Shown one piece after another: positions 11,406 to 61,027 of a DNA stretch of 64,000 nt (positions are counted from its first letter, which is position 1; each line of letters opens with the position of its first letter). This DNA comes from Acidobacteriota bacterium (GTDB lineage Bacteria; Acidobacteriota; JAAYUB01): assembly GCA_016935015.1 (NCBI GenBank), contig JAFGRT010000097.1:548-64547 (forward strand), written 5' to 3'. The notes beneath the pieces were generated by a model. That model searched no databases. It was not told where the DNA came from and saw nothing but the letters and a program-made list of their open reading frames with translations. A program made the translations under genes and the position numbers.

Positions 11406-11506
11406 AGACGACCGTTCCCCGGTCGGACAATGGAAAATTTCCGTTGATTTTAACAGACACCGTGGGATAAGATGATGTGTCGGCAGGCAGACTGTGAGGT
11501 GCGACA

Positions 11507-11695
11507 GTGTTTCTATCAACTTTTGGCCCAACTGAATGGATTATCATCCTGGTGATCGTGCTGATTCTCTTTGGCTGGAACCGGATACCACAGCTCGGCA
11601 AGGGATTGGGGGAAGGGATCCGCAATTTCAGGAATTCATTGCAGGGGGATGACAAATCCGCAGAAGACGTGGAGAAGAAGCCCGGAAAAGAATAA
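11507..11695 (+). CDS. tatA: Twin-arginine translocase subunit TatA/E
   Basis: 62 aa with N-terminal TM helix WIIILVIVLILFG and amphipathic helix. Motif F-G-x-x-R-I-P-x-L-G-K-G-L-G-E-G-I-R-N-F. Confidence 0.8.
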   Translation: MFLSTFGPTEWIIILVIVLILFGWNRIPQLGKGLGEGIRNFRNSLQGDDKSAEDVEKKPGKE

Positions 11696-11696
11696 T

Positions 11697-13390: not shown

Positions 13391-13470
13391 GGGTGCACTC
13401 CTGATTCAGGATATTCCATATTATTATAATCGACTTTTACAATAAAAGCGAATGCTTTGCAAACGGTTGT

Positions 13471-17942: not shown

Positions 17943-18056
17943 GTTATCAAAAAGTACGCCCGGCGGCTACTGAATATTCGAAAATTATGTTTGCTTGCGC
18001 CGTTCAAATATGATAAGTTTCACGGTTTAAATCCCTTGTAGAAAGGAGGAGTGACT

Positions 18057-39449: not shown

Positions 39450-40802
39450 TCAGGCCTGGCGGGGATCGGTGCGCTGGATGATATCGCTGACCGTTTTCTG
39501 GTTGAAGCCCTTAAAACCGTCGGTGCGCTGGATGATTTCCAGATGGCTCCCCACCGCTCCATGGGCGCCGAACTCCTCGGCCTGTTGCGGAGTAATCCGT
39601 TTCAGACGCAGCAGGGTGTCAATGCGCCGCGGATCTACCGCCCAGGTTTCCCCCCGGGTAAAGGCCTGCTTGAGAAAATCGAAATCACTGAACGGATCCA
39701 TGATCTCCACTTGCCGCTCGGGCAGGCGGTCGCTGGCTCGTCGGAAATCGGTCCGCACGGCCAGATGATGCAGGCCGGCTTGAAGGACGGAGTCGCCGTG
39801 AAGGCCGCACCACAGCCCGATGGTACCCAGCTGCTCCAGCTCGGGCAGGCGTTCCCGGCTGAAATCGCCCTGCACTTCTTCGGGCGACAGATCGATATCC
39901 AGGAACAGGGTGAAGCCGGACCCGGCGTGCTCCATGACCTGGGCTCCCCAGCCGGCCTCGGCACCTGCATAGAAGCGCTCCCGGCGCGTGAAACCGAGGG
40001 TTTCCATCAGGGTGACCAGGTGCGGCAGCAATTGCCGGGTGCAACGGAAGGTGTGGTGGTCGTGGTTGGCCCAGCCGATGCCCAGCCGCTCCTGGCGGAT
40101 GCGCTGGCGCTGGGCGGCCCGGTTCCGGTTCTGCCAGTATTTTCGCTCGGCTTCCAGCACCAGATGGGCCGCCACGTCCTGGCCCAGCAGATCGACCAGC
40201 TGTCGGGCCAGCTGGATGGCCTGGTCCAGCAGCTCGACGGGGTGGCCCTGCCGGGATCTCGTTTCCCACATCTCCCGCGCCCGGAAATAGTTGGGCAGAT
40301 AGCCGGTGTCCGGGTAATCCGGCTCGAAGATCCCGAAGCTGCGGCGCTCCACCGCCCAGACGGAGATGTCGTTGTCGCGGGTCAGATGGCTGCGCCGCAG
40401 GCGGCTGTAGGGGCGGCCCTCCATTTCCCGGGCGAAGCCCTGGGTCAGCAGAAAATCGGACAAGCGTTCCACCCGCACGGCCGCCCCCTCGCCGAGCCGG
40501 CCGTTGGGGGCGTCCACCAGCACCCGGGGCAGGTAGGTGCCTGGCGCGGCGTACACAGTGAATGAGGCGTACTGCATCTCGCGGCGCAGGCCAAGGGTTT
40601 GGAGGCGATCCACGAAGACCTCATCCCGGGGCATGGTGAAGTGATCCACCATGTCGAACAGATCAATGTCCGCCACTTCGCGAAAATCCGCCGCCATCCG
40701 CCGCAGCAGGCCGTTCTTGCGCGTCATGTCCCGCAGAAGTTCCCGCAGAAAGTTTTCTGTACCGGGATAACGTCGCCAGTTGAATTCACCGTTGTCATCC
40801 AT
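39450..40802 (-). CDS. Conserved hypothetical protein (450 aa), possibly DUF1338/VOC-type metalloenzyme (tentative)
   Basis: Protein-like composition begins at MDDNGEFNWRR (ATG 40802) with a GGGAGG RBS 7 nt upstream. The upstream 401 codons of the 851-aa track ORF overlap mqnB on the opposite strand and are Gly/Arg/Pro/His-rich. Confidence 0.5.
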   Translation of the reverse strand: MDDNGEFNWRRYPGTENFLRELLRDMTRKNGLLRRMAADFREVADIDLFDMVDHFTMPRDEVFVDRLQTLGLRREMQYASFTVYAAPGTYLPRVLVDAPNGRLGEGAAVRVERLSDFLLTQGFAREMEGRPYSRLRRSHLTRDNDISVWAVERRSFGIFEPDYPDTGYLPNYFRAREMWETRSRQGHPVELLDQAIQLARQLVDLLGQDVAAHLVLEAERKYWQNRNRAAQRQRIRQERLGIGWANHDHHTFRCTRQLLPHLVTLMETLGFTRRERFYAGAEAGWGAQVMEHAGSGFTLFLDIDLSPEEVQGDFSRERLPELEQLGTIGLWCGLHGDSVLQAGLHHLAVRTDFRRASDRLPERQVEIMDPFSDFDFLKQAFTRGETWAVDPRRIDTLLRLKRITPQQAEEFGAHGAVGSHLEIIQRTDGFKGFNQKTVSDIIQRTDPRQA

Positions 40803-40994
40803 GCAAACACCTCCCTCAGTTCCTTCGGTTGGATGATGAGGCCGGGAATAGGATTTAAACTTGCGGCCGGGCCGGCGCGTTCCGGCTTGCAGGGCGCAAA
40901 GGAAGCCCGCATTGCGGCGGGATTGGGGTATAATGGGTCCCGTCGTCCCCGACCGGGACGTGGGCCACTCTTTCAGACAGGGACACAGGTAATA

Positions 40995-41801
40995 ATGGCG
41001 GAAAAGGAGATTCCTCTGGCTGACATGGCGAGCGGCGGGCAGCCGGTTGTGGTGGCCGTGGCCACGGAGCCGGAGCTGCGGCCCCTGCGCGACCGGCTGG
41101 CCGATGGCCGGACCGTAACGGTGGGCGGCCGGCGCTGCCATTTCGGAATCCTGGGCGGCCGGCCGGTGCGCTTGCTGCTGACGGGGCCGGGCGCCGTCAA
41201 CGCCGCCCAGGCTGTCACCGCCCTGCTGGAGCGTACGCGGCCGGCCCTGGTGGTGGGGATGGGCTGCGCCGGCGTGTTCCGGCCCAGCGGACTGCGACCG
41301 GGCGATGTGGCCGTGGCCCGGGAAGAGATCGACGTGCAGTCGGGTATCGAGGCCGCGAACGGTACGGGTGCAGTGATCGAGTACCCTTTTCCGCTGCTGG
41401 AGCGCGACGGGCGGGGCTACACACGGCGCTTTCCCTGCGCCACGCCGTGGGATGCCACCGCCGGCGAGGTGATCCGGCGGGCTCTGGCGCCAGAAGAGGT
41501 CATGGTGGAAAGGGGCGCGTTCATCGCCGTGGCCACCATCACGGCCACCCGGGTACGCGCCGACATGCTCTGGGCGGCGTATCAGCCCCTCATGGAAACC
41601 ATGGAGGGGGCGGCCCTGGCCCAGGTCAGTCTGCATTACGGCGTGCCTTTTCTGGATATCCGGGCCGGCAGCAACTGGGTGGGGCCGCGCGACCGGGATT
41701 CCTGGCAGGTGGAGTTGGCCAGCCGGCGGGCCGCGCGCGGTGTGGCGGCCGTGATCGCCGAACTGCATCGCTGGCCGCCGCTGGCCGGCCGCGGCGGATA
41801 G
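40995..41801 (+). CDS. mqnB: Futalosine hydrolase (PNP/MTA-nucleosidase fold)
   Basis: VVVAVATEPELRPL..LLLTGPGAVNAAQAVTALL..VVGMGCAG pattern of MqnB/MTAN family. Adjacent to mqnD. Alternative start ATG 41025. Confidence 0.65.
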   Translation: MAEKEIPLADMASGGQPVVVAVATEPELRPLRDRLADGRTVTVGGRRCHFGILGGRPVRLLLTGPGAVNAAQAVTALLERTRPALVVGMGCAGVFRPSGLRPGDVAVAREEIDVQSGIEAANGTGAVIEYPFPLLERDGRGYTRRFPCATPWDATAGEVIRRALAPEEVMVERGAFIAVATITATRVRADMLWAAYQPLMETMEGAALAQVSLHYGVPFLDIRAGSNWVGPRDRDSWQVELASRRAARGVAAVIAELHRWPPLAGRGG

Positions 41802-41810
41802 AGGAGAATC

Positions 41811-42647
41811 ATGGCAACGACGCTGAACCTGGCCTATTCCCCGTGTCCCAATGACACCTATATTTTTCACGCCCTGGTCCACGGCCTGGTGGAGTGCGCG
41901 GTGTGCCGCTTCGCCGTGACACTGGACGACGTGGAGTCCCTCAACCAGGCCGCCCGGGCCGGGCGCTTTGAAGTCACCAAGCTGTCCTATGCCGCCCTGG
42001 GGCACCTGCTGGATCGCTACGTGCTGCTGCGCAGCGGCTCGGCCCTCGGCCGGGGCTGTGGTCCCCTGCTGGTGGCCGCGCCGGGCCGGACTCTTGCCGG
42101 ACTGGGTGATGCCACGATCGCCGTACCGGGCCGCTGGACCACGGCCGCCCTGTTACTGGGCCTTTACCAGGGGCGGCCGCCGGACATGGCGGCCATGCCG
42201 TTCGAGACCATCATGCCGGCCGTGTCCCGGGGGGATTACGCCTACGGGGTGATCATACACGAAGGCCGCTTCACCTTTTCTCGCTTCGGACTGGACTGTT
42301 TGCTGGATTTGGGCCGCTGGTGGGAAGAGAACACCGGGCTGCCCATTCCCCTGGGCGGCATCGCCATCCGGCGCGATCAGCCGGCCGAACTGGCGGCCGA
42401 AGTGGAGGCGGCCATCCGGCGCAGCATCGAATTCGCCCGGGCGCACCCCGATCGTTCGGCCGACTACATCCACCGTCATGCCCAGGAGATGGCACCGGAC
42501 GTCATCCGGGGTCATATCGAGCTCTATGTTAATGAATTCAGTCTGGATATCGGACCGGAAGGGGAGGCGGCCATCCGCCGCCTGTACACCGCTGCCGCGT
42601 TGGCCGGACTGCTTCCCCGGGTGACGCAATCCCTGTTCCTCGACTGA
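41811..42647 (+). CDS. mqnD: 1,4-dihydroxy-6-naphthoate synthase
   Basis: LNLAYSPCPNDTYIFHALVHG N-terminal signature of MqnD. Periplasmic-binding-protein-like fold, 278 aa. Confidence 0.75.
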   Translation: MATTLNLAYSPCPNDTYIFHALVHGLVECAVCRFAVTLDDVESLNQAARAGRFEVTKLSYAALGHLLDRYVLLRSGSALGRGCGPLLVAAPGRTLAGLGDATIAVPGRWTTAALLLGLYQGRPPDMAAMPFETIMPAVSRGDYAYGVIIHEGRFTFSRFGLDCLLDLGRWWEENTGLPIPLGGIAIRRDQPAELAAEVEAAIRRSIEFARAHPDRSADYIHRHAQEMAPDVIRGHIELYVNEFSLDIGPEGEAAIRRLYTAAALAGLLPRVTQSLFLD

Positions 42648-45734: not shown

Positions 45735-47153
45735 ATGAGTAAATGGCGATGGCAATGGTCGGCCATGGTGACGCTGGCCGTGCTGCTGTGGGGCGGTATA
45801 TTTGCCCGGGGGGACGAGGCGCTCGTCCCCGGGCAAATCCATGAAAACGTCGCCTGCACCGGCCATCCGGGGGATAGTTATGCCCTTTATCTCCCCGAAA
45901 TCTACGATCCGGCCCGGAAATGGCCGGTGGTCTACTTTTTCGAACCGGCAGCCCGCGGCAAACTGCCGGTGGAGAAGTACCAGGCTGTCGCCGCTGAATT
46001 TGATACCATTCTCATCGGCTCCAACACCTCCCGCAACTACGATAACGCGGCGGTCCTCCAGGCCGCCGAGGCCATGTGGGCCGACAGCCGCCGCCGGCTG
46101 GCCATCGATCCGGAACGGGTGGCGTTCTGCGGTTTTTCGGGCGGCGCCCGGGTGTCGGCCAGCCTGGCCGGCTTGCACGGCGGCGTGCGCGGCGTCATCG
46201 GCTTCGGTGCCGGCTACCAGGCCGAGGACCCCCACATACGGCAGCATCCCTTTTTGTATTTCGCGGCGGTGGGGGTGCGGGACATGAACTATTTGGAACT
46301 GAAAGCATTGGACCGCAAGCTGGACCGCCTGGGCGTGACACACCGGATCGTCACTTTCGACGACGACCATGTCTGGCCGCCGGAGGAAATATTCCATTCC
46401 GCCCTGGAATGGCTGCAGATCCATGATATAAAAGCCGGTCGGACACCGCGGGATGACGAATGGCTCCGCCGGGTTTACGAGCGTCGCTGGCGGGAGGCCG
46501 GCCGGCTGGAAGAGATCGATCGCCAACTGGCCGCTGTGGAGGAATACTCTCACCTGATGGCGGATTTCGAGGGTCTGCTGGATGTGGCCGGTGCCCGTGA
46601 GGCAACGGATCGCCTGCAAGCCGGGAAGGTGGTGCAGCGGGCGGCCCGGCGCGAACTGGAACTGTTGCAATTTGAAGAGGAAATTTACGCCGACCTGGTG
46701 GGTCGCTTCAGACGTTTGCGCGGCGAAGCGTTGACTCAAAAGGATCTTCCGGGCGCGCGGAAGTGGTGGCAGAAAAAGGTAACGGAATTGCTGGCGATGT
46801 CGCGCCGGCAGAAGGAGCCGGGAAAGATGCGGGTGGCCGAACGGATGCTCTCCTACATCGGTCTGCGTGCCTATGAAGAGTCGGTTTACTACTTCCGCAA
46901 CGGCGATTTTGTCAGGGTGGCGCTGGTGGAACAGCTGCGGCTGCTGGTCGACCCTCGTTCGCCTCATGCCCATTATGATCTGGCCTGCGCCTTCGCCCGG
47001 CTGGGCGAAACGGATGTGGCGCTGACCCATCTCGAACAGGCGGTGAAGAATGGTTTCAAACGGGTGGATCTTCTTGAAAAGGATGATGATCTGGATAATC
47101 TGCGCCGACTCCCCCGTTTCGAGAGGCTGTTGGCCGGCCTGCGGGGGGAATGA
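45735..47153 (+). CDS. Secreted alpha/beta-hydrolase (esterase/depolymerase-like) with C-terminal TPR-like region
   Basis: Signal peptide. GFSGG (GxSxG nucleophile elbow). C-terminal HAHYDLACAFARLGETDVALTHLEQAV TPR-like helices. Confidence 0.55.
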   Translation: MSKWRWQWSAMVTLAVLLWGGIFARGDEALVPGQIHENVACTGHPGDSYALYLPEIYDPARKWPVVYFFEPAARGKLPVEKYQAVAAEFDTILIGSNTSRNYDNAAVLQAAEAMWADSRRRLAIDPERVAFCGFSGGARVSASLAGLHGGVRGVIGFGAGYQAEDPHIRQHPFLYFAAVGVRDMNYLELKALDRKLDRLGVTHRIVTFDDDHVWPPEEIFHSALEWLQIHDIKAGRTPRDDEWLRRVYERRWREAGRLEEIDRQLAAVEEYSHLMADFEGLLDVAGAREATDRLQAGKVVQRAARRELELLQFEEEIYADLVGRFRRLRGEALTQKDLPGARKWWQKKVTELLAMSRRQKEPGKMRVAERMLSYIGLRAYEESVYYFRNGDFVRVALVEQLRLLVDPRSPHAHYDLACAFARLGETDVALTHLEQAVKNGFKRVDLLEKDDDLDNLRRLPRFERLLAGLRGE

Positions 47154-47275
47154 CCGGTCGGATCCATCCATCCCGCCATGAATCCCTGGTTGAATTATCG
47201 CTCGGATCACCGTATCCTATACCAACGCCGGGTGGCCCGGTCGTTGATCCCAGCCTGTTTTCAAGGAGGATACCC

Positions 47276-48850
47276 GTGTGCAAACCCCTGATTATCCTGT
47301 GTGCGTTGAGCATCCTGTTTATCAGCGCCGGCACCGGTCCGGTACTGGGCTGCACGTCCATCATGGTGGGCACCAAGGCCTCGGCCGACGGTTCCGTCAT
47401 GACGTCCCATACCTGCGACAGCCACCGCACCAGTTCAGCCATCGAAGTGGTCCCGCCGGCGCAGTATCCGGCCGGGGCGACCATCACCCTCACCAAACGG
47501 AGCGATGACAACAGCGGCCCCATGGAGCGGTACGGTCGCGAGGTTACCGGCACCATTCCCCAGGTGGCCGAAACGTACGGGTATCTGAATCCGGCCTATG
47601 CCTGTATGAACGAGTTTCAGGTAGCCATCGGCGAGTCGACCTTCGGCGGCCGCGAGGAACTGCAGAGTGACAAGGGGCTCATCGACTGCGAAACCCTGAC
47701 GCGTCTCATGCTGGAGCGGGCCACGACCGCCCGGGACGCCATACGCATCGGCGGCGCCCTGATCGAGGAATACGGCTGGAACGACGCCGGGGAGGTGCTG
47801 ACCATTTCCGACGAGAAGGAAGCGTGGGCCATGGAAATTATCGGCCCGGGCAAGGACAAGGTCGGGGCCATTTGGGCGGCCCAGCGGGTGCCCGACGATC
47901 ATGTCGCCGTCTATGCCAATGCCGCGCGCATCCGGCTCATCGATCTGGACAATCCTGAATTTTACATGACCTCGGCCAACGTCATCTCCACGGCCGTGGA
48001 GATGGGGTTCTACGATCCGGAGAGCGGTTTCCCATTCCAGTTCTGCTACGCCTATGACCCGGGCGGACGGCGCAGCATGGCCGCCAAACGGCGCGAGTGG
48101 CGCGCCCTGGACCTGCTGGCCCCGTCCCTAAAACTGCATCCCGAGAGCGAGAATTATCCCTTTTCGGTGAAACCGGAGGAGCCGGTCACGCCCCTGCGCG
48201 TCATGGAGATCTTTCGCGACACCTACGAGGGGACGGATTATGATTTTGTGAAACATTTCACCGTGACGGACGAGAAGACAGGCCAAACCGTCAAGAGCCC
48301 ATTGGCCAATCCGTTCATGCCCTACGACGCCAACAAACTGTTCAAAATCAACGGTGGCTGGGGCTGGCGCGGCGAACGCACTATCGCCCGCTGGTACACC
48401 ATGTACGCCACCATCACCCAGTCGCGGGCCTGGTTGCCCGACGCCGTGGGCGGCATCGTCTGGTTCGGCTACGACAATTGCGCCATGACCACGTTCGTCC
48501 CCATTTATGCGGGCGTGACGGACCTGCCGGAGGATTACCGGACCGACGGCCGCACCACAGGCTTCAGCCGCGATTCGGCCTGGTGGGCCTTCAACCGGGT
48601 GGCCACCCTGGCCGCTCACCGGTGGGGAGACATGCGCCAGGATGTGGCCGCAGTGCGCGACCCGCTGCAGGAGCAGTTCCTGACGGGCGTCACCGGGATC
48701 GACGCCACCGCCGCCCGGTTGTACCAGGACAACACGGCCGAGGCCCGGGCCTTCCTGACGGGCTACGTCAAGGGGGCCTGCCAGGCGGTGGTCAAGGCAT
48801 ACTGGGATCTGGGCGACCGGCTCTGGACCCAATACGACGAAAAATGGTAG
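47276..48850 (+). CDS. Peptidase family C69 dipeptidase, secreted
   Basis: AAGGAGGA RBS 5 nt before GTG 47276. Signal peptide ends ...GPVLG, then CTSIMVG (C69 N-terminal Cys nucleophile). Track ATG 47150 has no RBS and adds 42 non-signal residues. Confidence 0.7.
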   Translation: MCKPLIILCALSILFISAGTGPVLGCTSIMVGTKASADGSVMTSHTCDSHRTSSAIEVVPPAQYPAGATITLTKRSDDNSGPMERYGREVTGTIPQVAETYGYLNPAYACMNEFQVAIGESTFGGREELQSDKGLIDCETLTRLMLERATTARDAIRIGGALIEEYGWNDAGEVLTISDEKEAWAMEIIGPGKDKVGAIWAAQRVPDDHVAVYANAARIRLIDLDNPEFYMTSANVISTAVEMGFYDPESGFPFQFCYAYDPGGRRSMAAKRREWRALDLLAPSLKLHPESENYPFSVKPEEPVTPLRVMEIFRDTYEGTDYDFVKHFTVTDEKTGQTVKSPLANPFMPYDANKLFKINGGWGWRGERTIARWYTMYATITQSRAWLPDAVGGIVWFGYDNCAMTTFVPIYAGVTDLPEDYRTDGRTTGFSRDSAWWAFNRVATLAAHRWGDMRQDVAAVRDPLQEQFLTGVTGIDATAARLYQDNTAEARAFLTGYVKGACQAVVKAYWDLGDRLWTQYDEKW

Positions 48851-51429: not shown

Positions 51430-52758
51430 TCAGGGGACCCTGTGGCGACGGGTGATGAGTTCCAGCCCATCAGCAGGCTCCCGACGGGAGGTCGGCTGCC
51501 GCCGCATCGGGGGCATGCGCGTCGGCGCACCGGAGTTTTTCTTGCCGGTGGTGACGAAGAGAGGCAGGGGTGGGAAATCCCCTGCCAGAATTTCCGCGGC
51601 CAGTGCGGGGGTGGCCCCGAACCACTGCTGCAGCACCGAGGCATACACCTGGCGAAAATCCACTACATGGATCATGTTCCCGGCGTCGTCCAGGTCGCGC
51701 AGATCGGGTTGGGCACCGCAGAAACCGCCCCGTACGTTCCGGCCGAAGAGAAACAGCGGCGCCGCCGTCCCGTGATCGGTACCCGAGCCATTGTCGCGGA
51801 CACGCCGGCCGAACTCCGACATGGTCATCAGGACGACCTGGTCGGCGATGCCCAGCGCGTCCAGATCGGCCAGGAAGGCGGCCACGGCGCCGGCCACCGT
51901 CCGGAGCAGCCCAGGGTGTACCTGGGACTGCTCCACGTGGGTATCGAATCCACTCAGGAGCACGGAGTATACGGGTGTGGCCAGTCCACCGGCAATGAGA
52001 CGGGCGACCATGGAGAGTTCCGTCGCCAGCGGGGTGGCGGGGTAGCTGACCGCGTTGACGGCGGCGGTAAAGGCGGAGTAGATCTTTTCGGCGTAAACGG
52101 AGGAGGTTTCGGCCAGGGATCGGACGAACACCAGCTCGTCGCCCGCCCGGCCGGCGGGTGCCGGTGTCTGGTGAACGGTCAGCCAGCCGCTGGTCAGTTG
52201 ATAAAGGGCCTCGGGATCATTGACGGCCATGCCCATCCCCTGGTTCTGGCCGCGCAGCAGCAGCGTGTCGGCGCTTTTAACCTCGATGGCCAGCGGCGCC
52301 TCCGGCCGGACGTCGGGATAGTCGGGGTAGAGTGTTTCCAGGTACCGGCCCAGCCAGCCGGTAGCGATAACGGGTGCCGTGGAGCCGCCCCGCCAGATAT
52401 CCGTGGAACGGAAATGGGAGAGGTCCGGGTCGGGGTACCCCACGCCGAGCACGACGGCCATTTCACTGCCGGACCACAGCGGCTCCCAGGCAACCAGTCC
52501 GGGGTGCAGGCCAAGGCGGTCGTCCAGCGGTCGCACCTCGTCCTCGGCGACAGCCACCGTGGGGCGTTGGTCGTAATAGGTGGCCTCGCTGTAAGGGATG
52601 ACGGTATTGAGGCCGTCGTTGCCGCCCAGCATCTCCAGGATCACCAGCACGGGTGACGGCGCGGCCGCCGGCGGGGGGGAACCCCAGGCCGGGCGACATC
52701 CGCCCGACAGGGTAGCCATGCCGCTCAGTTTCAAAAACCAGCGTCGGTCAAGTTTCAT
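51430..52758 (-). CDS. DUF1501 (sulfatase-like fold) protein with Tat signal
   Basis: MKLDRRWFLKLSGMATLSG twin-arginine signal. Conserved GGNDGLNTV and DTH motifs typical of DUF1501. Downstream partner of DUF1800 gene. Confidence 0.75.
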   Translation of the reverse strand: MKLDRRWFLKLSGMATLSGGCRPAWGSPPPAAAPSPVLVILEMLGGNDGLNTVIPYSEATYYDQRPTVAVAEDEVRPLDDRLGLHPGLVAWEPLWSGSEMAVVLGVGYPDPDLSHFRSTDIWRGGSTAPVIATGWLGRYLETLYPDYPDVRPEAPLAIEVKSADTLLLRGQNQGMGMAVNDPEALYQLTSGWLTVHQTPAPAGRAGDELVFVRSLAETSSVYAEKIYSAFTAAVNAVSYPATPLATELSMVARLIAGGLATPVYSVLLSGFDTHVEQSQVHPGLLRTVAGAVAAFLADLDALGIADQVVLMTMSEFGRRVRDNGSGTDHGTAAPLFLFGRNVRGGFCGAQPDLRDLDDAGNMIHVVDFRQVYASVLQQWFGATPALAAEILAGDFPPLPLFVTTGKKNSGAPTRMPPMRRQPTSRREPADGLELITRRHRVP

Positions 52759-52768
52759 GGGCCGTCTC

Positions 52769-54244
52769 CTAGTGAAGCTGGTATTCGGCCATCTGCATCA
52801 CGGCCTGGAGAAAGAGCCGCACCCGCGTCATGGCCTCGGGCCGGTAGGGATTCCATTGGTTCGGCGGCAGGGAGCCTAGCAGGATGGCCACCAGTTCCGC
52901 TTCCGTTTGCTCATCGAGGGCCAGCGGCAGGAAATCGGTGGTCACATGCCGCACCAGTTGGCGCGGGTCCTCCGGATGGGGCAGCTGATGCAGGAAACGA
53001 TGGTAATCCATGATAAACAGCCGGCTGGGATAGATGACGGCCTGGGCCAGCATCTGGCGAAAGGGGAGGGAGGACGTGCTCAGCCAGTCGCGGTGCCCCG
53101 GCCAGCCGGCGACGTTGGGCGGATCGAAGGGCGTCTGCCCCAGCACGCTGAGGATCAGGCCCATGAAGGGCCAGTCGATCTTGGTGGCGTGGAACTGCCG
53201 CAGCACACCGAGCAAGAAATCGATGGGGCTCTTGATGTCACTGCCGATGAGTTCGTCGGCCATGAAGTGGGCGCTGCCCAGCAGGTCTTTCAGCACCGGT
53301 TCCAGCTCGAAGTCGGAGGCGATCAGCCGATCGGCCAGCGCCTGGACCAGGTCCTCGTCCGCCACCGGGCTCACGAAGTGCCGGTAGATACGGCCGGCGA
53401 GGAAAACGGCGGTGGCGCGCTGTCCGAAGATGATATCCACGATATCCTCGTCATTCCAGTTGCCGGTATGGCCCAGGAACGTCTTCTGGCCATTGTCGTG
53501 AAGAAGGGGATGACGATAGGCGCCGAGCAGGGTCGGATTGATGCGCCAGCCGGTCAGCGCCCGCGCCGCCTCGGTCACGTCCGTCTGGGTGTAGTGACTG
53601 CGGCCCATGGTGAACAGTTCGAGCAGCTCGCGGGCGTAATTTTCGTTGATGCCATATTTTGTGTTGAGGTTGCCGTCCAGGTAGATGAGCATGGCCGGGT
53701 TTTGACCGACTCTTTTGGTCAGGTCACGGATGTCCCCCGCTGCTGCGTCGCGAAACAGACGGTTGATGCTGAGGATCAACCGGGCGACGAATACTTTCTC
53801 CATTTCCACCACGAAATGGTTGCTCCAGAAAAAGACCAGCCGTTCGCGGATGCTGCCGTCCACATAAGCCTGCCGCAGCCACCAGGTCACCAGTTCCTGC
53901 CGCATCCGGTATTCGGCCTCGAAATCGAGAGGCAGTTCAACGGGCTCATCGGCCCAGGCCGGCAATACGGGTGAAGGCGGAAAGCGGAACAATTCCGCCA
54001 CCGCTTCCGCAGGTCCCAGTTTCATGAACCGGTCGATTTCGGAGCGACGGGGCGGGCCGAGGCGGGCACGCCGCAACAGATGGGCCGCCCGACGGCGGTT
54101 CCAGGGTTGCTGCGTCGTCGGGCGATAGGGCTCCAGCCCGGCGCTGATCTTTTGGTGGGGCGACGGTGCGGGATCACGACGTCGCCCGGCCTGTTTTCGC
54201 CCGGTGACGGCCAGCGTCAGCAGTTCACGTCGATCCATGAGCAT
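52769..54244 (-). CDS. DUF1800 domain protein
   Basis: 491 aa. NYARELLELFTMG and GRIYRHF motifs characteristic of DUF1800. Forms the usual DUF1800-DUF1501 gene pair (10-nt spacing). Confidence 0.7.
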   Translation of the reverse strand: MLMDRRELLTLAVTGRKQAGRRRDPAPSPHQKISAGLEPYRPTTQQPWNRRRAAHLLRRARLGPPRRSEIDRFMKLGPAEAVAELFRFPPSPVLPAWADEPVELPLDFEAEYRMRQELVTWWLRQAYVDGSIRERLVFFWSNHFVVEMEKVFVARLILSINRLFRDAAAGDIRDLTKRVGQNPAMLIYLDGNLNTKYGINENYARELLELFTMGRSHYTQTDVTEAARALTGWRINPTLLGAYRHPLLHDNGQKTFLGHTGNWNDEDIVDIIFGQRATAVFLAGRIYRHFVSPVADEDLVQALADRLIASDFELEPVLKDLLGSAHFMADELIGSDIKSPIDFLLGVLRQFHATKIDWPFMGLILSVLGQTPFDPPNVAGWPGHRDWLSTSSLPFRQMLAQAVIYPSRLFIMDYHRFLHQLPHPEDPRQLVRHVTTDFLPLALDEQTEAELVAILLGSLPPNQWNPYRPEAMTRVRLFLQAVMQMAEYQLH

Positions 54245-54497: not shown

Positions 54498-55400
54498 CTA
54501 GCTCTGGTTGAAAGTGGGCCGGACCTGCCGCCGCAATGCACCGGCCGTCTGTCGACCGGACGGGTGCATCACCGTCGCCTCCCCTCCGCGTGTGAGTTCC
54601 CGGGTTCGGCTCAAAACAAGCAGCCGCTGCAGGTAGATCCTTTCCAGTTCCTGCAACAACCGGATGGTGGCGAACGGCCGATAGATCACCCGGATCTCCG
54701 AATGGCGGAAACTCAAAGCCTGGCGGGCCAGGGACGGATGATAGGTCCATTCCTTTTCACCCAAATCCATCAGAGCCACATCAATGGCCGCCGGTCCGGC
54801 CGCCCGCACCAACCGGTTAAGTTCCGCCGGCCGGGTGCTGTACACGGCCGTCAGGCGGTCGGTGTTCCGAAAGCGGTTGTAATCCGTCAAGCAGGAGTTC
54901 TCCACCTCGTAGAAGCATCCGTTCGCCATGGTTTGCTGGATGGATTGGGCGGCGTCGCTGTCCTGACTGCCATGCAGCAGCAACAGTTCACGGCCGCCGA
55001 CGGTTTTCCGGAAGAGCCGCCTGAAGGACTCCCGCCCGGCGGCATGAGCGACCCGGAATTCAGCCTTGTATCGCCGGCTCAGAGCGGCCAAATCCCGGCA
55101 GAATCCGTTCAGCTCCTCCACGGTGGCCGGGGCGATTTCAGTGATGGACGAGAGTGCTTTCATCTGATTCTGAATGGGATGGATATCCTGGTCAGGAATC
55201 ATGGCTTTCTGACACAGCGGCGGCAACGATTCACTGAGGAACCGGAACAGGCGCTGCCACTCCTCCTGCATGGATTCCGGCAGGGCCGTCCGCCCGGCCC
55301 GGGTCATGGTCTCCACACAGGCAAAGATGCCCGCCAAGCCGCGAATAAATGGGAATGCCAGGTCTTTGGCCGGGATGGGCTGGATTCGGATCACATTCAT
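54498..55400 (-). CDS. Hypothetical protein, divergent from lysR
   Basis: 300-aa ORF with protein-like composition. Divergently arranged to the LysR gene across an AT-rich 166-bp spacer. Confidence 0.45.
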   Translation of the reverse strand: MNVIRIQPIPAKDLAFPFIRGLAGIFACVETMTRAGRTALPESMQEEWQRLFRFLSESLPPLCQKAMIPDQDIHPIQNQMKALSSITEIAPATVEELNGFCRDLAALSRRYKAEFRVAHAAGRESFRRLFRKTVGGRELLLLHGSQDSDAAQSIQQTMANGCFYEVENSCLTDYNRFRNTDRLTAVYSTRPAELNRLVRAAGPAAIDVALMDLGEKEWTYHPSLARQALSFRHSEIRVIYRPFATIRLLQELERIYLQRLLVLSRTRELTRGGEATVMHPSGRQTAGALRRQVRPTFNQS

Positions 55401-55566: not shown

Positions 55567-56484
55567 ATGTTTTTTCAACAACTTCGTACGTTTGTTATCT
55601 CGGCGAAATTTGAAAATTTCAGTCGGGCCGCCGATACACTGCACCTGACCCAGTCGGCCGTCACTCATCAGATCAAGTTGCTGGAAGAGCATTTCGGCTT
55701 GAAACTGTACCACCGTCATCGGCGCGGGATTCGGCTGACGGACGAGGGGCGGAAACTCCTGGAGCATGCCCGGGAAATTCTGGCGGGGGTGCGGGATATG
55801 GAAGAATTGGCCCGGTCCCTGCAGGGCCGGGATAATGTGTCCCTTTCCATTGCGGCACACCGGGGGATGGTGCGCTATCGCCTGCCGGACGTGATCAAGG
55901 CTTTCCGTACGCGTTACATCGGCGCCAATATCACCATCTTCACCCGGGTGGTCGATGATGACATCATCGGACTGGTGATGTCCGGCGAAGCCGATTTCGG
56001 GATCGTCACCTCCTGGAACACGTTCCGTCAGATTCATTTCCATGAGTTCGTCTCTTATGACATGATGCTCTGTGTGGGTGATCAGTACCGGGCGGAACAT
56101 CCCCGAATTCATTGGGATCGGCTTTCCCTGGAGGAGATTGCCGCTGTACCGCTGGTGTTGTACGAGAAGGTCAATCCCATTCGGCGGGGCATCGACCGGG
56201 TGTTTGAAGAGCACCATCTGACACCCCGGGTAATCATCGAGATCGGGGGGCCTGATATTCTTCTGGAATACGCCCGAATCGGGCTGGGTGTTTCCATCAT
56301 ATCAGCCCTGCCCTTGCACCACCGGAAAATTGAGGGCGTGAAGGTGATTCCGGTCACCCACTATTTCGGACGCCTGGGCTATGGCGTGATATATCGCCAG
56401 GACAAATATTTCTCCCCGGCGCTAGTGGATTTTCTGAGCATTCTCGATCCCCAGCTGGTGGTGGACGGACGGCTGCCGCGCTGA
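55567..56484 (+). CDS. LysR-family transcriptional regulator
   Basis: N-terminal HTH LRTFVISAKFENFSRAADTLHLTQSAVTHQIKLLEEHFGLKLYHRHRRGIRLTDEGRKLL. C-terminal LysR substrate-binding domain. Confidence 0.85.
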   Translation: MFFQQLRTFVISAKFENFSRAADTLHLTQSAVTHQIKLLEEHFGLKLYHRHRRGIRLTDEGRKLLEHAREILAGVRDMEELARSLQGRDNVSLSIAAHRGMVRYRLPDVIKAFRTRYIGANITIFTRVVDDDIIGLVMSGEADFGIVTSWNTFRQIHFHEFVSYDMMLCVGDQYRAEHPRIHWDRLSLEEIAAVPLVLYEKVNPIRRGIDRVFEEHHLTPRVIIEIGGPDILLEYARIGLGVSIISALPLHHRKIEGVKVIPVTHYFGRLGYGVIYRQDKYFSPALVDFLSILDPQLVVDGRLPR

Positions 56485-56762
56485 ATGCCGCAGGCAACCT
56501 TGTTGTGCCCGGCCATATCGAAGGCGCCCCAGTCGCCGGCCGGGATTTCCATCCAGGTGACGAAAGCGTGCATCCTTCGACGTGCCTGCCGGCAGCCTCG
56601 CCTGTTATCAGGGGAGGCTGTTTTCATCTGCCAATAAAGAAAGCAGAGATGCATAGCGCAAGGCAACGCCTGATGGGTGAGAAAAAAGTCATTGATTGCA
56701 TTGGGCTCCGGCTATTTGTATAGTGTATGTTTTAAGTGCCCGGTGAAAGGGTTCATATCGGC

Positions 56763-59606
56763 ATGCATTCCGGTCCGTCCATCTTTTTCCGCCGCGCCCG
56801 GGAGGAGGCCAGCCGTTACGGGGAGGATCCCTGGGTCTTCCTGCGTGAGCTGGTCCAGAACAGCCGCGACGCCGACGCGACGCGTATCGATTTCACGGTC
56901 GCGATCGACGGGGACTGGCAGACGCTGGTGTGCCGCGACAACGGCTACGGCATGACCCGGGAGGTCATCGAGGAATACTTGCTGCGCTTGTACGCCTCCA
57001 ACAAGGAGGAGCTGGCCAGTGCCATCGGCCTGTTCGGAGTGGGTTTCTGGTCGGTGCTGTTGTTTCAACCGGCTATCATCCGCATCACCTCCGGCGACGG
57101 CCGGGAATGCCATGCCCTGGAAATCGACTGTCGCGGCCACGCCGTGCGCTCGGTTGCGCCCCCATCTCAGCCCCTGGCGGGCACGGAAATCGTCCTGCGC
57201 CGCGTCGCCGGTTCGTCCCTCGATGCCCGCCGGTTGCACGCCCTGGTGGAGGAGAAACTGATCCTGTTCGCCGGACATATCCGGCCGGGGCCCGGCGGGA
57301 AGCAGCTGGACATTTATTGCCAGGGCCGCCGACTCAACCGTCCCTTCGCGCCGCCCGACGTTTTCGGCCGCCGGTTTCGCACCCGCGAATTCGACGGGGT
57401 GCTCGGTTTCGATACCGTTCCCAGTGTCCGAATTTACAAGGGCGGCATCCTGGTGCGGGATCTGACCGGATTGGAGGAGGTCATCCCCAGCCGGCGACGG
57501 ATCCGGCTACCGGAATCGGGCTGGGGACTCTATCCCGTCATTCGCCTCAATGCCGACAGGATCCAGCTGCTCATGGACCGTCAGACCATTTTTGAGGATC
57601 CCGTCCTCCACCGGGCGGTGGATTATTGCGAGAAGGAACTGCTGCGCTTGCATCGGCGCCTGATTCGCCGGTTGTTCCCCATGGATCTCGCCAATCGCTT
57701 CACCTCTTTGTGGATTGGTATGCGAGGCAAGGCCATCGCCTTCCTGGCCGGTTTTTTCCTGGTGCTGGTTTTGGGTGTCATGGGCGTTCTGCTGGGGCGA
57801 CCGGATGATCTGATCCGGAGCCGGGTGGATCAACCTCCGCTGCTGGGGCAGGCGCCGGCGGGAGAAACCGTGACATCCGTCCGCCTGAGTGTGGACCGGG
57901 CCCTGACCGGATGGCGCGGGATGTTTCTGAATGTCCCGGGTGAACGGCCCGTCCGGTGGGACTTCCACTACGAAGGGGGCGGTGACCACCTGTTTCGGTT
58001 ACGTTCCTTCACGGCGTATGATCCGCAGCAGGGGCTGCGACCCGTGCCCCTGGCGAAGACGGGGGACCTTCCGTCAATGAGCGCTGCGGGAGAGGCAATG
58101 TTTATCACCATCGGCGTCACCGGCCGGGGTGACCCCTTCGTCCTGCCGTGTCCGCCGGACCATACCGTCGTAGTCGAAAGCCTGCGGCATGCAGACCAGG
58201 AACCGGTGGCCCTGTGGCGCAGTCTAGCCGGCGAAGCGGTCGCGCGAACGGATGCGCCCGGTCGACTGACCTATGCGGTTGTGCCGCTCAGGGAAGCGGT
58301 GTCGGTCGATCCGTTTTTGACGGGAGCCGCCCGACTCGAGTGGCCACCCGACTGGCAACAATTCATCGACGAAACCCTCGCCGCGTCTCCCGCCGAGCGG
58401 GTGGTGCGGGCGGTCCGCCGGATTCGGGAACGATTGGTGTACGCCCGGGATGAAGATCTGTCGCGCCGCTTCGCCCAGTCCGAGGGTACCTGGCTGGAAC
58501 GCACGATCCGGATGGGAGCGGGAGATTGCGATGTGCTCAACGGTGTGCTGGTTTTGTTGCTCCAGGCTCTTGGGATTCCCGCCCGGCTCGAGGCCGGTCT
58601 GGTGGGAGTGGAGGGTCGGGCCATGCCGGCATTGCATGCCTGGGCCCGGTGTTACCTGGGCGAATGGCGAACCCTTGACGTCTCCACCGGCTATGATTCC
58701 CAGACCAGCGACGCCCGTTTTCCGGCGGAACGGTTACTGGGCATCGTCGGCCCGGCGGCGGCGCGCCGGGCGGTCGGGCAGGGCGCACGTGACCGGAAAT
58801 CCCTGTCGGCCACGGCGGATTCCACTGACGGGGCTGTCGGCCCCCCCTGGGCTTGGCTGCTGATAGGCGGCGCCCTGGCTGCCGTGATCGGGATGGGGAT
58901 GTTATGGTGGTGGCGGCGCCGGCGGCCGGTGGTGGATCAGCCGCAATATATTCGCGAATTGTTCCGGCATCATCTGACGTACGGCCAGAGCGGAGGACCG
59001 CTGAAGCTGCAGTTCCGGCCTGTGCTCCCCACCCTGGGTAGCGGCTGCCTCAGTCTGCATCAGGTCCAGAGGCTGGCCGGCCGGGCGCGGTTGCTGGGCA
59101 CGGACCCGAACTGCCCCCTGGCCGTTCAGCTGCGTGGCCGGCGGCGCATGCTGGATGCCTCGGCCGATATCGTGCGCGAACTGGTTCCTTTTCTGCCGCC
59201 CGTCACCTGGTTGGAAGACTGGCGGGCGGTGCTGGCCGAGCCGTCCCTGTCGCCGGCCTGGCGCCAGGTGCAGGCCGTACTGGATGAACTGGAACCGGAT
59301 ATTCGCCTGTACCGCCTGGCGGGCCAAAACGGTTTTGCCGAGGCTTACCTCCCGTTTCGGGATGTCGGCCGCGGCCGGTTTCATCTGCAGGTGGGCGATG
59401 GCCATCCCGTCTGGGCGTGGGCGGAGGATGAAATCATGGCCAACGGCCGGCAGGGTCTCTTCACGGTACTGGAAAAACTGACGGGAATGATGACCATTCG
59501 GCCGGCGCGGCGGTATCGTTTGCTGGCCGGCGCGGCGCGGCAATTGCTGGTCTCTGAAGGTCAGGAATGGACGGTCATCCGACCGGAAAAGGGACAGCTG
59601 CCATGA
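56763..59606 (+). CDS. Membrane protein with N-terminal Hsp90/MORC-type GHKL ATPase domain and a transglutaminase-like (Cys-His-Asp) domain flanked by two TM helices
   Basis: GHKL motifs: N-box ELVQNSRDADATRIDF, G1 DNGYGMT, G2 IGLFGVGFWSVLLF (compare Hsp90 GQFGVGFYS). TM1 IAFLAGFFLVLVLGVMGVLLG. Transglutaminase core GAGDCDVLNGVLVLLLQALGIPARLEAG...ALHAWARCYLGEWRTLDVSTG with Cys, His and Asp all present. TM2 WAWLLIGGALAAVIGMGMLWWW. About 220-aa C-terminal region. Alternative GTG start 56736. Confidence 0.7.
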   Translation: MHSGPSIFFRRAREEASRYGEDPWVFLRELVQNSRDADATRIDFTVAIDGDWQTLVCRDNGYGMTREVIEEYLLRLYASNKEELASAIGLFGVGFWSVLLFQPAIIRITSGDGRECHALEIDCRGHAVRSVAPPSQPLAGTEIVLRRVAGSSLDARRLHALVEEKLILFAGHIRPGPGGKQLDIYCQGRRLNRPFAPPDVFGRRFRTREFDGVLGFDTVPSVRIYKGGILVRDLTGLEEVIPSRRRIRLPESGWGLYPVIRLNADRIQLLMDRQTIFEDPVLHRAVDYCEKELLRLHRRLIRRLFPMDLANRFTSLWIGMRGKAIAFLAGFFLVLVLGVMGVLLGRPDDLIRSRVDQPPLLGQAPAGETVTSVRLSVDRALTGWRGMFLNVPGERPVRWDFHYEGGGDHLFRLRSFTAYDPQQGLRPVPLAKTGDLPSMSAAGEAMFITIGVTGRGDPFVLPCPPDHTVVVESLRHADQEPVALWRSLAGEAVARTDAPGRLTYAVVPLREAVSVDPFLTGAARLEWPPDWQQFIDETLAASPAERVVRAVRRIRERLVYARDEDLSRRFAQSEGTWLERTIRMGAGDCDVLNGVLVLLLQALGIPARLEAGLVGVEGRAMPALHAWARCYLGEWRTLDVSTGYDSQTSDARFPAERLLGIVGPAAARRAVGQGARDRKSLSATADSTDGAVGPPWAWLLIGGALAAVIGMGMLWWWRRRRPVVDQPQYIRELFRHHLTYGQSGGPLKLQFRPVLPTLGSGCLSLHQVQRLAGRARLLGTDPNCPLAVQLRGRRRMLDASADIVRELVPFLPPVTWLEDWRAVLAEPSLSPAWRQVQAVLDELEPDIRLYRLAGQNGFAEAYLPFRDVGRGRFHLQVGDGHPVWAWAEDEIMANGRQGLFTVLEKLTGMMTIRPARRYRLLAGAARQLLVSEGQEWTVIRPEKGQLP

Positions 59607-61027
59607 GGGAATCGGAATATCATTTGTCCATCGATCTGGAGGCGGAACTTCGCAAAATTACCCGCAACCAGCATCTCAACCGGGTGCACTACCTGGTACA
59701 GCTGATCCGTCACGCCGTGCTGCTGGAGCCGCGGGAAATCCACGTTCACAGCCGGCGCCGGCAGGTGGAGTTCAGCCAGGATGGACGCGCGGTGTCGGCC
59801 GCCGAGTGGCAGTTGCTGGAATTATTGTTCGGCCGCCATCGCGTTCCGGCCGATACCCAGCAGCAGGCGCTCTCCCGCCTGGAGGAACGCTACGGCATCG
59901 CCCTGCTATCGCTCGTGTTGACCTTTCCGGAAGTGTATATCGGGTCGGGCACGCGTCGTCTGGCCGCTACGACGGCCGGGGTGGAATTTCAGATCAGTGA
60001 GAACCATGTGGCCGGCTATCGGGTGACGGTGATCCGGCCGGCGGCTTTTCGCGCCGACGAGGAACGGGAGATCCGCTATTTTTGCAGCGGCATGGAAGTG
60101 CCCCTCTATTTCAACGGGGAACGGATCAATCAGGCCATCCCCTTTACCGGTCAGATCCTGGCCCGGCGTTTCGCCGATGATTTCGGCCGGGGCGCAGTGG
60201 GTATCCCCGGCAGCGGCGATTTGTGTGCCTATGATTTTTTCAAGAACGGCATCCGCTTCGGGATCAAGCAGTTTATCCCTGCCGACGGCCGCATCGTGCG
60301 CGGGATCTGGGACTCGTGCCTGCGGGACTATGAGCGGCAGTATCGGGCCAGCATCCAGCACGGCGAGGCGCAGCAGCGGCGGCAGACGGCCCGGCTATAC
60401 GGCGCGTTGCGGCGGCAGTTCGTCGCCCTGGACGGCCCGGATAAGCTGCGCATCAAGAAGATCCTGCTCGGCCTGGACCGCGACAGCTGGCGGGCGAACT
60501 GGGGCGATATTCCCCTCTTCCATGCCCAGGCCTATGAATTTTGTTTCAGTCTCGAGAACCTGCTTCGCCTCAAGATCCGCTATGGCGGGATCCCGTTCAC
60601 CGCCCAGCCGGACGCATCCGCGCCGGCGGATGTTCCCCGTCTGCTGCCCGAAGACGTGTATTTCCTGCGAAACGATCTGGCCGAACCGGTACGCCTGTAT
60701 CAGGGGGGATGTGACCGACCCTCGATCCGGCGCCGGCTACGGCGATGGTTGGACCGATACCGCCCGCCCGTCCAGGAAGCCGTGGCGGTTCCCGCTCGCC
60801 TGGGGTGGGTGATGGAACGACTGAACCACGATGACCAGCGCCACCGGTTTTGTCTGTGTCGCGGAGCCAGCCGCATCGTTCCGGACCGACGCGGTTTTGA
60901 CGTGGTGTATCTTTCCTTGCAGAGCATGGCTGTGCGCCGCCTGCTCGACCGGTTGGCCCGGGAGCCCCATCAGTTGACTGCCATCCGCTACGCCCTGCTG
61001 TCGCTGGCTGCCGCTACCACTCCCTGA
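59603..61027 (+). CDS. Degenerate GHKL-fold paralogue (partner of the upstream ATPase/transglutaminase protein)
   Basis: ATG 59603 overlaps the TGA stop of the upstream gene (ATGA coupling). N-terminus HYLVQLIRHAVLLEPREIHVHS..QDGRAV..ERYGIALLSLVL aligns to the upstream ELVQNSRDA..DNGYGM..GLFGVGFWSVLLF but has lost the N-box Asn/Asp and the G1 glycines. Confidence 0.55.
   Translation: MRESEYHLSIDLEAELRKITRNQHLNRVHYLVQLIRHAVLLEPREIHVHSRRRQVEFSQDGRAVSAAEWQLLELLFGRHRVPADTQQQALSRLEERYGIALLSLVLTFPEVYIGSGTRRLAATTAGVEFQISENHVAGYRVTVIRPAAFRADEEREIRYFCSGMEVPLYFNGERINQAIPFTGQILARRFADDFGRGAVGIPGSGDLCAYDFFKNGIRFGIKQFIPADGRIVRGIWDSCLRDYERQYRASIQHGEAQQRRQTARLYGALRRQFVALDGPDKLRIKKILLGLDRDSWRANWGDIPLFHAQAYEFCFSLENLLRLKIRYGGIPFTAQPDASAPADVPRLLPEDVYFLRNDLAEPVRLYQGGCDRPSIRRRLRRWLDRYRPPVQEAVAVPARLGWVMERLNHDDQRHRFCLCRGASRIVPDRRGFDVVYLSLQSMAVRRLLDRLAREPHQLTAIRYALLSLAAATTP

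Follow-up and report, generated by a model that had tools for sequence, protein, structure and literature searches.

Two adjacent genes, here called ORF1 and ORF2 (open reading frames 1 and 2), lie near the end of a 64,000-nucleotide (nt) stretch of contig JAFGRT010000097.1 from an Acidobacteriota bacterium, which we refer to as the window. ORF1 and ORF2 are a strictly co-inherited, translationally coupled pair, and both encode divergent Hsp90/HtpG-like proteins. ORF1 joins a GHKL ATPase to a transglutaminase-like enzyme domain that is predicted to lie in the periplasm. ORF2 is a soluble paralogue of the cytoplasmic parts of ORF1 and is predicted to be a pseudo-ATPase. The domains as such are known. 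What appears to be new is their combination, together with the membrane insertion in an Hsp90-like scaffold and the obligate partner of the pseudo-ATPase type, and there is a substantial chance that the pair represents a new kind of trans-membrane machine. An earlier note, made from the DNA sequence of the window alone, knew of no characterised family with this combination. In agreement with this, no description of a GHKL/Hsp90-like ATPase fused to a transglutaminase, nor of the ORF2 family, was found in the literature.

The gene pair

The two genes and their parts are located as follows (aa, amino acids; TM, transmembrane segment; pLDDT, predicted local distance difference test score).

56763..59606, + strand: ORF1, a membrane-bound Hsp90-like ATPase with a TgpA-like periplasmic transglutaminase in the same polypeptide; 947 aa from ATG
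56775..57275, + strand: ORF1 N-terminal GHKL (Bergerat-fold) ATPase domain, residues ~14-180, supported by Pfam HATPase_c_3, invariant residues and hhalign against HtpG
57276..57728, + strand: ORF1 middle (transducer-like) domain, residues ~181-331, holding R282 (57579-57581) in the motif LMDRQ.v.ED
57735..57791, + strand: TM1, residues 334-352, N-in to out, hydropathy 2.79
57873..58715, + strand: periplasmic TgpA-like domain, with a beta-rich subdomain (380-520) and the transglutaminase core (525-660)
58527-58529, 58635-58637 and 58677-58679, + strand: catalytic residues C598, H634 and D648 of the transglutaminase core
58833..58889, + strand: TM2, residues 700-718, out to in, with WWWRRRR after it
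58944..59555, + strand: ORF1 cytoplasmic C-terminal domain, residues ~737-940, pLDDT >90, no Pfam family, homologous to the ORF2 C-terminal domain
59603..61027, + strand: ORF2, predicted soluble pseudo-ATPase paralogue of the ORF1 cytoplasmic parts; 474 aa (P0083)
59651..60481, + strand: ORF2 degenerate GHKL N-terminal and middle region, residues 17-293, from the profile alignment to ORF1
60446..61018, + strand: C-terminal domain of ORF2 (residues 282-472), a homologue of the corresponding ORF1 domain that resembles the HtpG C-terminal dimerisation domain

The longest ORF1 frame starts with GTG at 56736 (56736..59606, 956 aa), and all ORF1 residue numbers refer to this frame. The public protein P0001 (947 aa, 100% identical, named "ATP-binding protein", from an Acidobacteria metagenome-assembled genome) uses the ATG at 56763, and the start of the closest relative (locus L091) lines up with this ATG. 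The TGA of ORF1 is overlapped by the ATG of ORF2 as ATGA at 59603, as had been noticed earlier, and the stretch GGAAAAGGGA lies 5' of the ORF2 start. A start codon giving this 4-nt overlap is available in 52/77 loci, and one giving an 8-nt overlap in 12/77. The database names of the relatives are generic ("ATP-binding protein", "transglutaminase domain-containing protein", "hypothetical protein").

ATPase and middle domains of ORF1

The N-terminal domain of ORF1 has all the hallmarks of an active GHKL ATPase. Pfam HATPase_c_3 matched residues 35-130 with 42.7 bits (cutoff 25). The motifs ELVQNSRDA, DNGYGM and GLFGVGFWS were found at residues 38, 68 and 98, i. e. where the earlier note had placed them. 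They provide an intact N-box (E38/N42/D45), G1 (D68-G70-G72) and G2 (G98-G101-G103) in addition to K90, and GHKL superfamily motifs I, II (DxGxG) and III are all present. In an alignment of 50 homologues with 21-73% identity to the window protein, R37, E38, Q41, N42, R44, D45, D68, G70, G72, M73, K90, G98, G101, G103, F104 and W105 were invariant. The N-terminal ATPase domain is also the best conserved region of the protein, with a mean pairwise identity of 43.5% compared with 33% for the middle domain, 32% for the transglutaminase core, 24% for the C-terminal domain and 22% for the periplasmic beta subdomain.

Within the GHKL superfamily the domain is closest to Hsp90. The ORF1 profile aligned with two annotated HtpG sequences over 147 columns at 32% identity (hhalign; 98.9% probability, E 3e-17), which relates it to the N-terminal domain of Hsp90. 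In a profile search of the PDB, the top ATPase matches of the ORF1 family were the N-terminal domains of HtpG, GRP94, TRAP1 and Hsp90, with E from 3e-10. The AlphaFold2 model of ORF1 had a mean pLDDT of 83.6; its top 50 Foldseek matches were all Hsp90-family chains, and these covered the N-terminal and the middle domain over 350-458 columns. Taken together, the structural alignments span 336-458 positions. The curated HtpG models were not reached (NF003555, 33.5 bits with a cutoff of 371; NF010683, 28.4 bits with a cutoff of 455), and PF00183 (Pfam HSP90) was not among the matches. ORF1 is Hsp90-like and not an HtpG orthologue.

The earlier note had called the ATPase "Hsp90/MORC-like". The first half of this name fits the data. 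The ORF1 family profile also matches MORC proteins in the N-box region (E 6e-7). The similarity extends over only ~45 residues around motifs I-II, as seen with MORC2, and ORF1 has neither DNA-related domains nor a restriction-modification context. Two other assignments of the N-terminal region, an ordinary histidine kinase or an Hsp90 fragment without a transglutaminase core, had been named in advance as outcomes that would speak against the proposed architecture. The histidine-kinase reading was dropped, as Pfam found no HisKA/DHp domain and HATPase_c stayed under its cutoff; Transglut_core was found with 39.8 bits.

R282 of the middle domain was invariant in the same 50 homologues. Hsp90 proteins have a catalytic-loop arginine (R380 in yeast) in the motif NxSRE. 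A collinear segment, VRIYKGGILVRD...LMDRQTIFEDPVL in ORF1 and IKLYVKRVFITD...NVSREMIQDSPLL in HtpG, paired R282 with the SRE arginine of HtpG in hhalign, at an E of 0.24, which is non-significant alone.

Membrane topology and the periplasmic domain

Two hydrophobic segments, and only two, were found in ORF1. They bracket the transglutaminase region across the family. In 45 sequences the mean number of lysines and arginines per 15-residue flank was 3.56 on the N side of TM1 versus 1.38 on its C side, and 1.44 versus 4.29 for TM2. According to the positive-inside rule these counts fit an N-in/transglutaminase-out/C-in arrangement. Thus the ATPase and the C-terminal domain are predicted to be cytoplasmic and the transglutaminase periplasmic, in line with the extracytoplasmic core with intact triad that the earlier note had proposed. 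No TM segment was found in ORF2.

Pfam Transglut_core (PF01841) matched residues 549-648 with 39.8 bits (cutoff 23), and the motifs GDCDVLN, HAWARCY and WRTLDVS lie at residues 596, 634 and 644. The Cys-His-Asp triad (C598, H634, D648) is intact, as expected for a member of the transglutaminase-like superfamily. The three residues were invariant in 50/50 homologues, as were D597, D599 and N602. Since the residues of both the ATPase and the transglutaminase are invariant in these homologues, both active sites are under strict selection.

The periplasmic domain has the fold of TgpA (PDB 6g49/6g4h), with a profile E of 1e-10. A single-sequence search of the PDB with the periplasmic region gave 0 matches, and TgpA surfaced only in the profile and fold searches. 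TgpA (PA2873) of Pseudomonas aeruginosa is an inner-membrane protein whose periplasmic domain has Ca-independent transglutaminase activity in vitro; it is essential and co-transcribed with PA2875 and PA2874 (PMC3507681). Both proteins are anchored in the inner membrane and have an intact Cys-His-Asp triad. In contrast to TgpA, ORF1 lacks the polytopic DUF3488 N-terminus as well as DUF4129, neither of which was found by Pfam.

The region behind TM2 had been described as a C-terminal tail. It does follow the second TM helix, but it is a cytoplasmic domain of its own (~737-940) that is modelled with high confidence and is homologous to the C-terminus of ORF2. By sequence it gave no match to HtpG in hhalign.

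ORF2 as a degenerate paralogue of ORF1

ORF2 gave 0 matches in the Pfam scan and 0 in the NCBIfam scan, and for ORF2 and the C-terminal domain that it shares with ORF1 there is at present no family model in either collection. Its origin became apparent from profile comparisons. With a profile of 149 ORF2-family sequences against the ORF1 alignment, hhalign paired ORF2 residues 17-293 with ORF1 residues 22-331 (98.5% probability, E 3e-15). Abutting this first match, ORF2 residues 282-472 were paired with ORF1 residues 737-929 (92.6-95.5% probability, E 5e-7 to 1.6e-8). Hence ORF2 corresponds to ORF1 minus residues 332-736, i. e. without the insertion composed of TM1, the periplasmic domain and TM2. 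The ORF2 profile also aligned with HtpG over 322 columns (E 5e-8). The earlier note had regarded ORF2 as a degenerate GHKL paralogue on the basis of its N-terminus. This holds, but the homology extends over the full length and not over the N-terminus only.

The ATPase motifs of ORF2 have been lost to a varying extent. The window protein has Q in place of the catalytic Glu, H at the position of the Mg-binding Asn, Q instead of the G1 Asp and A where the second G1 Gly would stand, and the set of GHKL motifs is not present. Within the family, the position of the Mg-binding Asn is occupied by N in 0/149 sequences. The catalytic Glu is E in 77/149 and Q in 48/149, the window protein being among the latter, and the G1 Asp is kept in 46/149. 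Weak HATPase matches were seen in only 6-7/95 family members scanned with Pfam, and no other family recurred. Judged from these residues, the ORF2 family as a whole is predicted to be a pseudo-ATPase, with the window clade among the most degenerate. At the other end stands the ORF2 homologue of locus L007 (10801-12330), which kept ELVKTAFKRGA, DNGSGI and GEYGAGLL without the Mg-binding Asn and matched HATPase_c_3 with 25.3 bits (E 1.8e-5), just over the Pfam cutoff. Nucleotide binding may be retained in some ORF2 clades.

Conservation and distribution

The proposed check on the pair was whether both genes are conserved together, and they are. Wherever the contig runs on beyond the ORF1 homologue (85/85 loci), an ORF2-family ORF was found directly downstream on the same strand; in the five fetched loci without ORF2, the contig ends inside or at ORF1. 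This also holds for seven distant ORF1 homologues, each of which is followed by an abutting or overlapping same-strand ORF of 380-557 aa that has no Pfam match and aligns with ORF2. The pairwise identities of the two proteins correlate closely (Pearson 0.94, Spearman 0.78; 72 loci, 2556 pairs), with ORF2 diverging faster (mean pairwise identity 25%, versus 32% for ORF1). No third conserved gene emerged when 2468 neighbouring ORFs were clustered all against all: no cluster was present in >12/85 loci, and the largest ones were generic families or reflected synteny within a clade.

Relatives of ORF1 were found in 416 species in a scan of one genome per species. The best 80 of the 416 are mostly labelled Acidobacteriota (Holophagae, Thermoanaerobaculia, Aminicenantes) or Myxococcota (Nannocystales, Polyangia), and a few of these 80 loci are labelled Fermentibacteria, Eisenbacteria or Chrysiogenia. 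A word-indexed search with ORF1 returned 82 clusters. HATPase_c_3 is present in all but the weakest of them (P0082, 589 aa, which has no transglutaminase match either), Transglut_core in nearly all, and the length is mostly 885-1046 aa.

The same kind of search returned no more than 5 proteins when ORF2 alone was the query and 7 for a 12-sequence profile, and the ORF2 family was revealed only by extraction of the neighbourhoods and an exhaustive HMMER profile search. The latter gave 459 representatives (50% clustering) at E <= 1e-3 and 297 at E <= 1e-10; the matches listed have 218-553 aa. One apparent homologue from an NCBI assembly, P0089 (402 aa), was left out of the alignments. In it the C-terminal domain of an ORF1 homologue is joined to the first ~30 residues of an ORF2 homologue, followed by low-complexity sequence, which is most likely a frameshift or an assembly error at the overlapping stop and start codons.

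The family is thus not rare. Two cultured strains carry the pair, Enhygromyxa salina DSM 15201 and Paraliomyxa miuraensis SMH-27-4, which makes experiments possible.

A possible mechanism

GHKL ATPases act by ATP-driven dimerisation of their N-terminal domains, and Hsp90 dimers are held together by their C-terminal domains. ORF1 provides an active protomer and ORF2 a dead one. Their N-terminal, middle and C-terminal domains are homologous, and the two are always encoded together; therefore a heterodimer with a single hydrolysis site would be the simplest arrangement. ORF1 and ORF2 could associate at the inner membrane via their homologous, HtpG-CTD-like C-terminal domains (CTD, C-terminal domain) and via ATP-dependent closure of the N-terminal domains, with ORF1 contributing the only site competent for hydrolysis. 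The TM helices leave ORF1 exactly at the junction of the middle and the C-terminal domain, and thus the motion of the clamp might be relayed through the membrane to the Cys-His-Asp enzyme. In this way the clamp cycle would gate an enzyme that cross-links, deamidates or cleaves envelope proteins, and would do so in a compartment free of ATP. This would amount to inside-out control of a periplasmic enzyme of the transglutaminase fold.

We see about an even chance that the pair forms an asymmetric Hsp90-like heterodimer whose ATP cycle is relayed across the membrane and controls the periplasmic transglutaminase or protease. Tentatively, this can be taken a step further: the pair would be a transmembrane Hsp90, an obligate heterodimer of an active and a dead protomer, in which the clamp cycle, mechanically relayed via two TM helices at the hinge between middle and C-terminal domain, powers or gates a periplasmic enzyme that covalently modifies proteins.

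Some points weigh against this picture. The role of R282 as the candidate counterpart of the Hsp90 catalytic-loop arginine derives from the alignment with an E of 0.24. The structure model of ORF2 is poor at residues 178-395 (pLDDT <50). Finally, the sequence does not tell whether signals would run inside-out or outside-in.

If the proposed mechanism holds true, ORF1 would be the first member of the Hsp90 family that works across a membrane, and the architecture suggests a new route for ATP-dependent control across the inner membrane. The pair would also be a natural, hard-wired model for the asymmetric (one-site) ATPase cycle that is debated for Hsp90 and TRAP1. Furthermore it touches on the unexplained essentiality of TgpA and on the recurrent pairing of transglutaminases with chaperone-type ATPases, as in the MoxR-DUF58-transglutaminase systems.

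Alternative explanations

Signals could also travel in the opposite direction. As an outside-in sensor, the periplasmic domain would bind or covalently capture an envelope ligand or a damaged protein and thereby switch the cytoplasmic heterodimer onto a cytoplasmic client, for example a regulator. The genes upstream of the pair, which often encode regulators or envelope-stress sensors (LysR, ECF sigma with FecR, LiaF-like, Trans_reg_C-TPR), would suit such a role. Yet these regulators vary by clade, and no client or partner gene is conserved. The invariance of the triad and of D597, D599 and N602 in 50/50 homologues argues for catalysis over binding alone, and the Pfam scan found no DHp/HisKA, other phosphotransfer or output domain. 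We consider a sensor of this kind unlikely.

A second possibility, which we find more doubtful still, is a machine for membrane protein quality control analogous to FtsH. In such a machine a cytoplasmic holdase or remodeller and a papain-fold domain that trims or cross-links the same clients in the periplasm would be co-localised but not mechanically coupled. The Hsp90-family fold and motifs would be in keeping with this, and proteases or peptidases recur near the module in some Acidobacteriota (L001, L092 and the window). These neighbours are not conserved beyond one phylum, however, and no co-chaperone genes are linked. Moreover, the insertion lies exactly at the middle/C-terminal junction and matches the junction in ORF2, which suggests mechanical coupling rather than mere co-localisation.

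Pairs of an ATPase and an inactive paralogue occur in defence systems, and the earlier note had accordingly suggested a stress or conflict system. In an anti-phage system the GHKL ATPase would sense invasion, the transglutaminase-like peptidase would be the effector and the inactive paralogue the regulator. Matches to Tiamat TmtA in PADLOC (E 7e-10) and, weakly, to MzaB in NCBIfam point in this direction, but both are located in the N-terminal domain. The matches in PADLOC-DB v2 are limited to residues ~17-108 of ORF1, i. e. ~90 residues of the GHKL core, and ORF2 has none. The genes around the pair in the window are housekeeping genes (glgA, a pyrophosphatase, a thiM-like kinase, DUF1501/DUF1800), so the window locus is not a defence island. 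The variable flanks elsewhere contained no defence genes either, except for one faint AbiEii match 8 kb off in locus L008. Among 72,556 plasmids and 50,697 phage records no full-length homologues were found; the sole matches were htpG genes, which matched the N-terminal domain. In addition, the effector domain would face the periplasm, ORF1 and ORF2 diverge in step, and Acidobacteriota and Myxococcota dominate among the best-matching loci. A conflict system is therefore very improbable, and we do not retain the suggestion.

That ORF2 is a decaying, functionless tandem duplicate and ORF1 acts alone can practically be dismissed: the lost ATPase motifs, the faster evolution (25% versus 32%) and the lack of a Pfam match would be expected of such a remnant, but no locus of sufficient length lacks an intact homologue, and this holds across several phyla. 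The family has 459 representatives, the 4- or 8-nt overlap is conserved, ORF2 still has conserved positions, and its N-terminal and C-terminal domains are modelled with confidence.

Relation to known systems

Hsp90-family proteins are known as soluble homodimeric chaperones, and enzymes of the periplasm have no local ATP. ORF1 shares with HtpG, TRAP1 and GRP94 the Bergerat-fold N-terminal domain with the same motifs, the candidate arginine R282 and the order of N-terminal, middle and C-terminal domains. It differs in being embedded in the membrane by a ~400-residue insertion (TM, periplasmic enzyme, TM) between the middle and the C-terminal domain. Instead of a homodimer, an obligate pair of an active ATPase and a predicted pseudo-ATPase is found here, and genes for co-chaperones are not linked.

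LapD-LapG is a case in which a periplasmic cysteine protease of the transglutaminase fold is governed by an inner-membrane receptor, with the cytoplasmic nucleotide state relayed via TM helices. Inside-out control of a papain/transglutaminase-fold enzyme in the periplasm would be common to both systems, as a functional analogy only. LapG is a separate soluble protein sequestered by LapD, the signal is the binding of cyclic di-GMP and not ATP hydrolysis, and no GHKL domain is involved.

Genes for MoxR AAA ATPases, DUF58 proteins and transglutaminases are clustered in operons (PMC12067865), and there, too, a transglutaminase is linked to a chaperone-type ATPase. In contrast to these operons, the ATPase of ORF1 is GHKL/Hsp90-like and not an AAA+ MoxR, and it is fused to the transglutaminase in one polypeptide rather than separately encoded. 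No MoxR or DUF58/vWA neighbours were found at the loci with called genes.

Sacsin-like proteins with HATPase_c_3, including Tiamat TmtA, resemble the N-terminal ~90 residues of ORF1 (P_loop_sacsin of NCBIfam, 44.1 bits; SACS of Pfam, 22.3 bits; TmtA in PADLOC). Both sacsin matches are under their curated cutoffs (50 and 32.8 bits). TmtA proteins are soluble, have 1300-1650 aa and a different architecture, and ORF1 has no defence context.

Genomic neighbourhood

The elements upstream of the pair in the window are the following.

54498..55400, - strand: 300-aa gene, divergent from lysR, no Pfam or NCBIfam match
55567..56484, + strand: LysR-family regulator (Pfam HTH_1 and LysR_substrate)
56593..56628, + strand: hairpin with 12-nt arms and a 4-nt loop, followed by the T-run TTTTCATCT; terminator-like, downstream of lysR
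56694..56733, + strand: conserved 40-nt block with a -10-like TATAGT (56719-56724), candidate promoter of the ORF1-ORF2 operon

The earlier note had placed the module directly downstream of a LysR regulator. This is the case in the window, but the link is confined to its own acidobacterial clade. Upstream of the pair, lysR and the divergent gene (283-300 aa) are also present in L091 (3850-5831; ORF1 74% identity) and L092 (4047-5986; ORF1 44%, with different other flanks). The LysR identity in these two loci is 62-88% and thus above that of ORF1 (44-74%). The divergent gene has a homologue in the same position with 71% identity in L091 and 32% in L092 (E 3e-52). LysR is not present at the seven distant loci, where genes were called, and it was rejected as a core component.

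The 40-nt block is nearly identical in L091, whereas the flanking intergenic DNA is not. Scans for consensus promoters and terminators did not exceed the shuffled expectation and flagged neither the hairpin nor the TATAGT block. From its upstream sequence, ORF1-ORF2 is probably transcribed from a promoter of its own. A search of 56300-56900 for a leader RNA gave no Rfam match.

In the window the pair lies between lysR and a convergent glgA. Further upstream are DUF1800/DUF1501 genes, a pyrophosphatase, a thiM-like (thiazole) kinase, a C69 peptidase and an AMP-binding enzyme. In other clades the upstream genes encode an ECF (extracytoplasmic function) sigma factor with FecR, LiaF-like, Trans_reg_C-TPR or Zn_peptidase_2 proteins, PETase-like hydrolases, an SLT lytic transglycosylase or MBL-fold (metallo-beta-lactamase) proteins. 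The upstream neighbours have a cell-envelope flavour, yet there is no single recurring partner.

Two of these arrangements involve overlapping genes. In L037 (5728-6966; similar ORFs in L046 and L050, labelled Myxococcota or Bdellovibrionales) the gene for the SLT lytic transglycosylase overlaps the start of the ORF1 homologue by 4 nt, which hints at a link to peptidoglycan or the envelope in that clade. In L040 (6218-6967), in L083 (6067-6933) and in an 11-locus cluster (e. g. L063-L066, L073, L077 and L084), an MBL-fold gene (Lactamase_B_3) on the same strand abuts the ORF1 homologue from upstream and overlaps it by 5 nt. The loci with this neighbour are labelled Aminicenantes or Chrysiogenia.

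Several Acidobacteriota have peptidase genes close to the module: L001 has Zn_peptidase_2, Peptidase_C69 and Tricorn (7216-7911, 12005-13642, 17855-18745), and L092 has Tricorn (10340-13654). The C69 peptidase of the window (47150-48850) is located 8 kb upstream of the module. This recurrence may be lineage synteny rather than functional linkage. The DUF1800/DUF1501 gene pair (51430-54244, - strand), upstream of the module in the window, is syntenic in L091. Elsewhere in the window, an 851-aa ORF on the - strand (39450-42005) has no Pfam match and overlaps three plus-strand ORFs of 278-400 aa.

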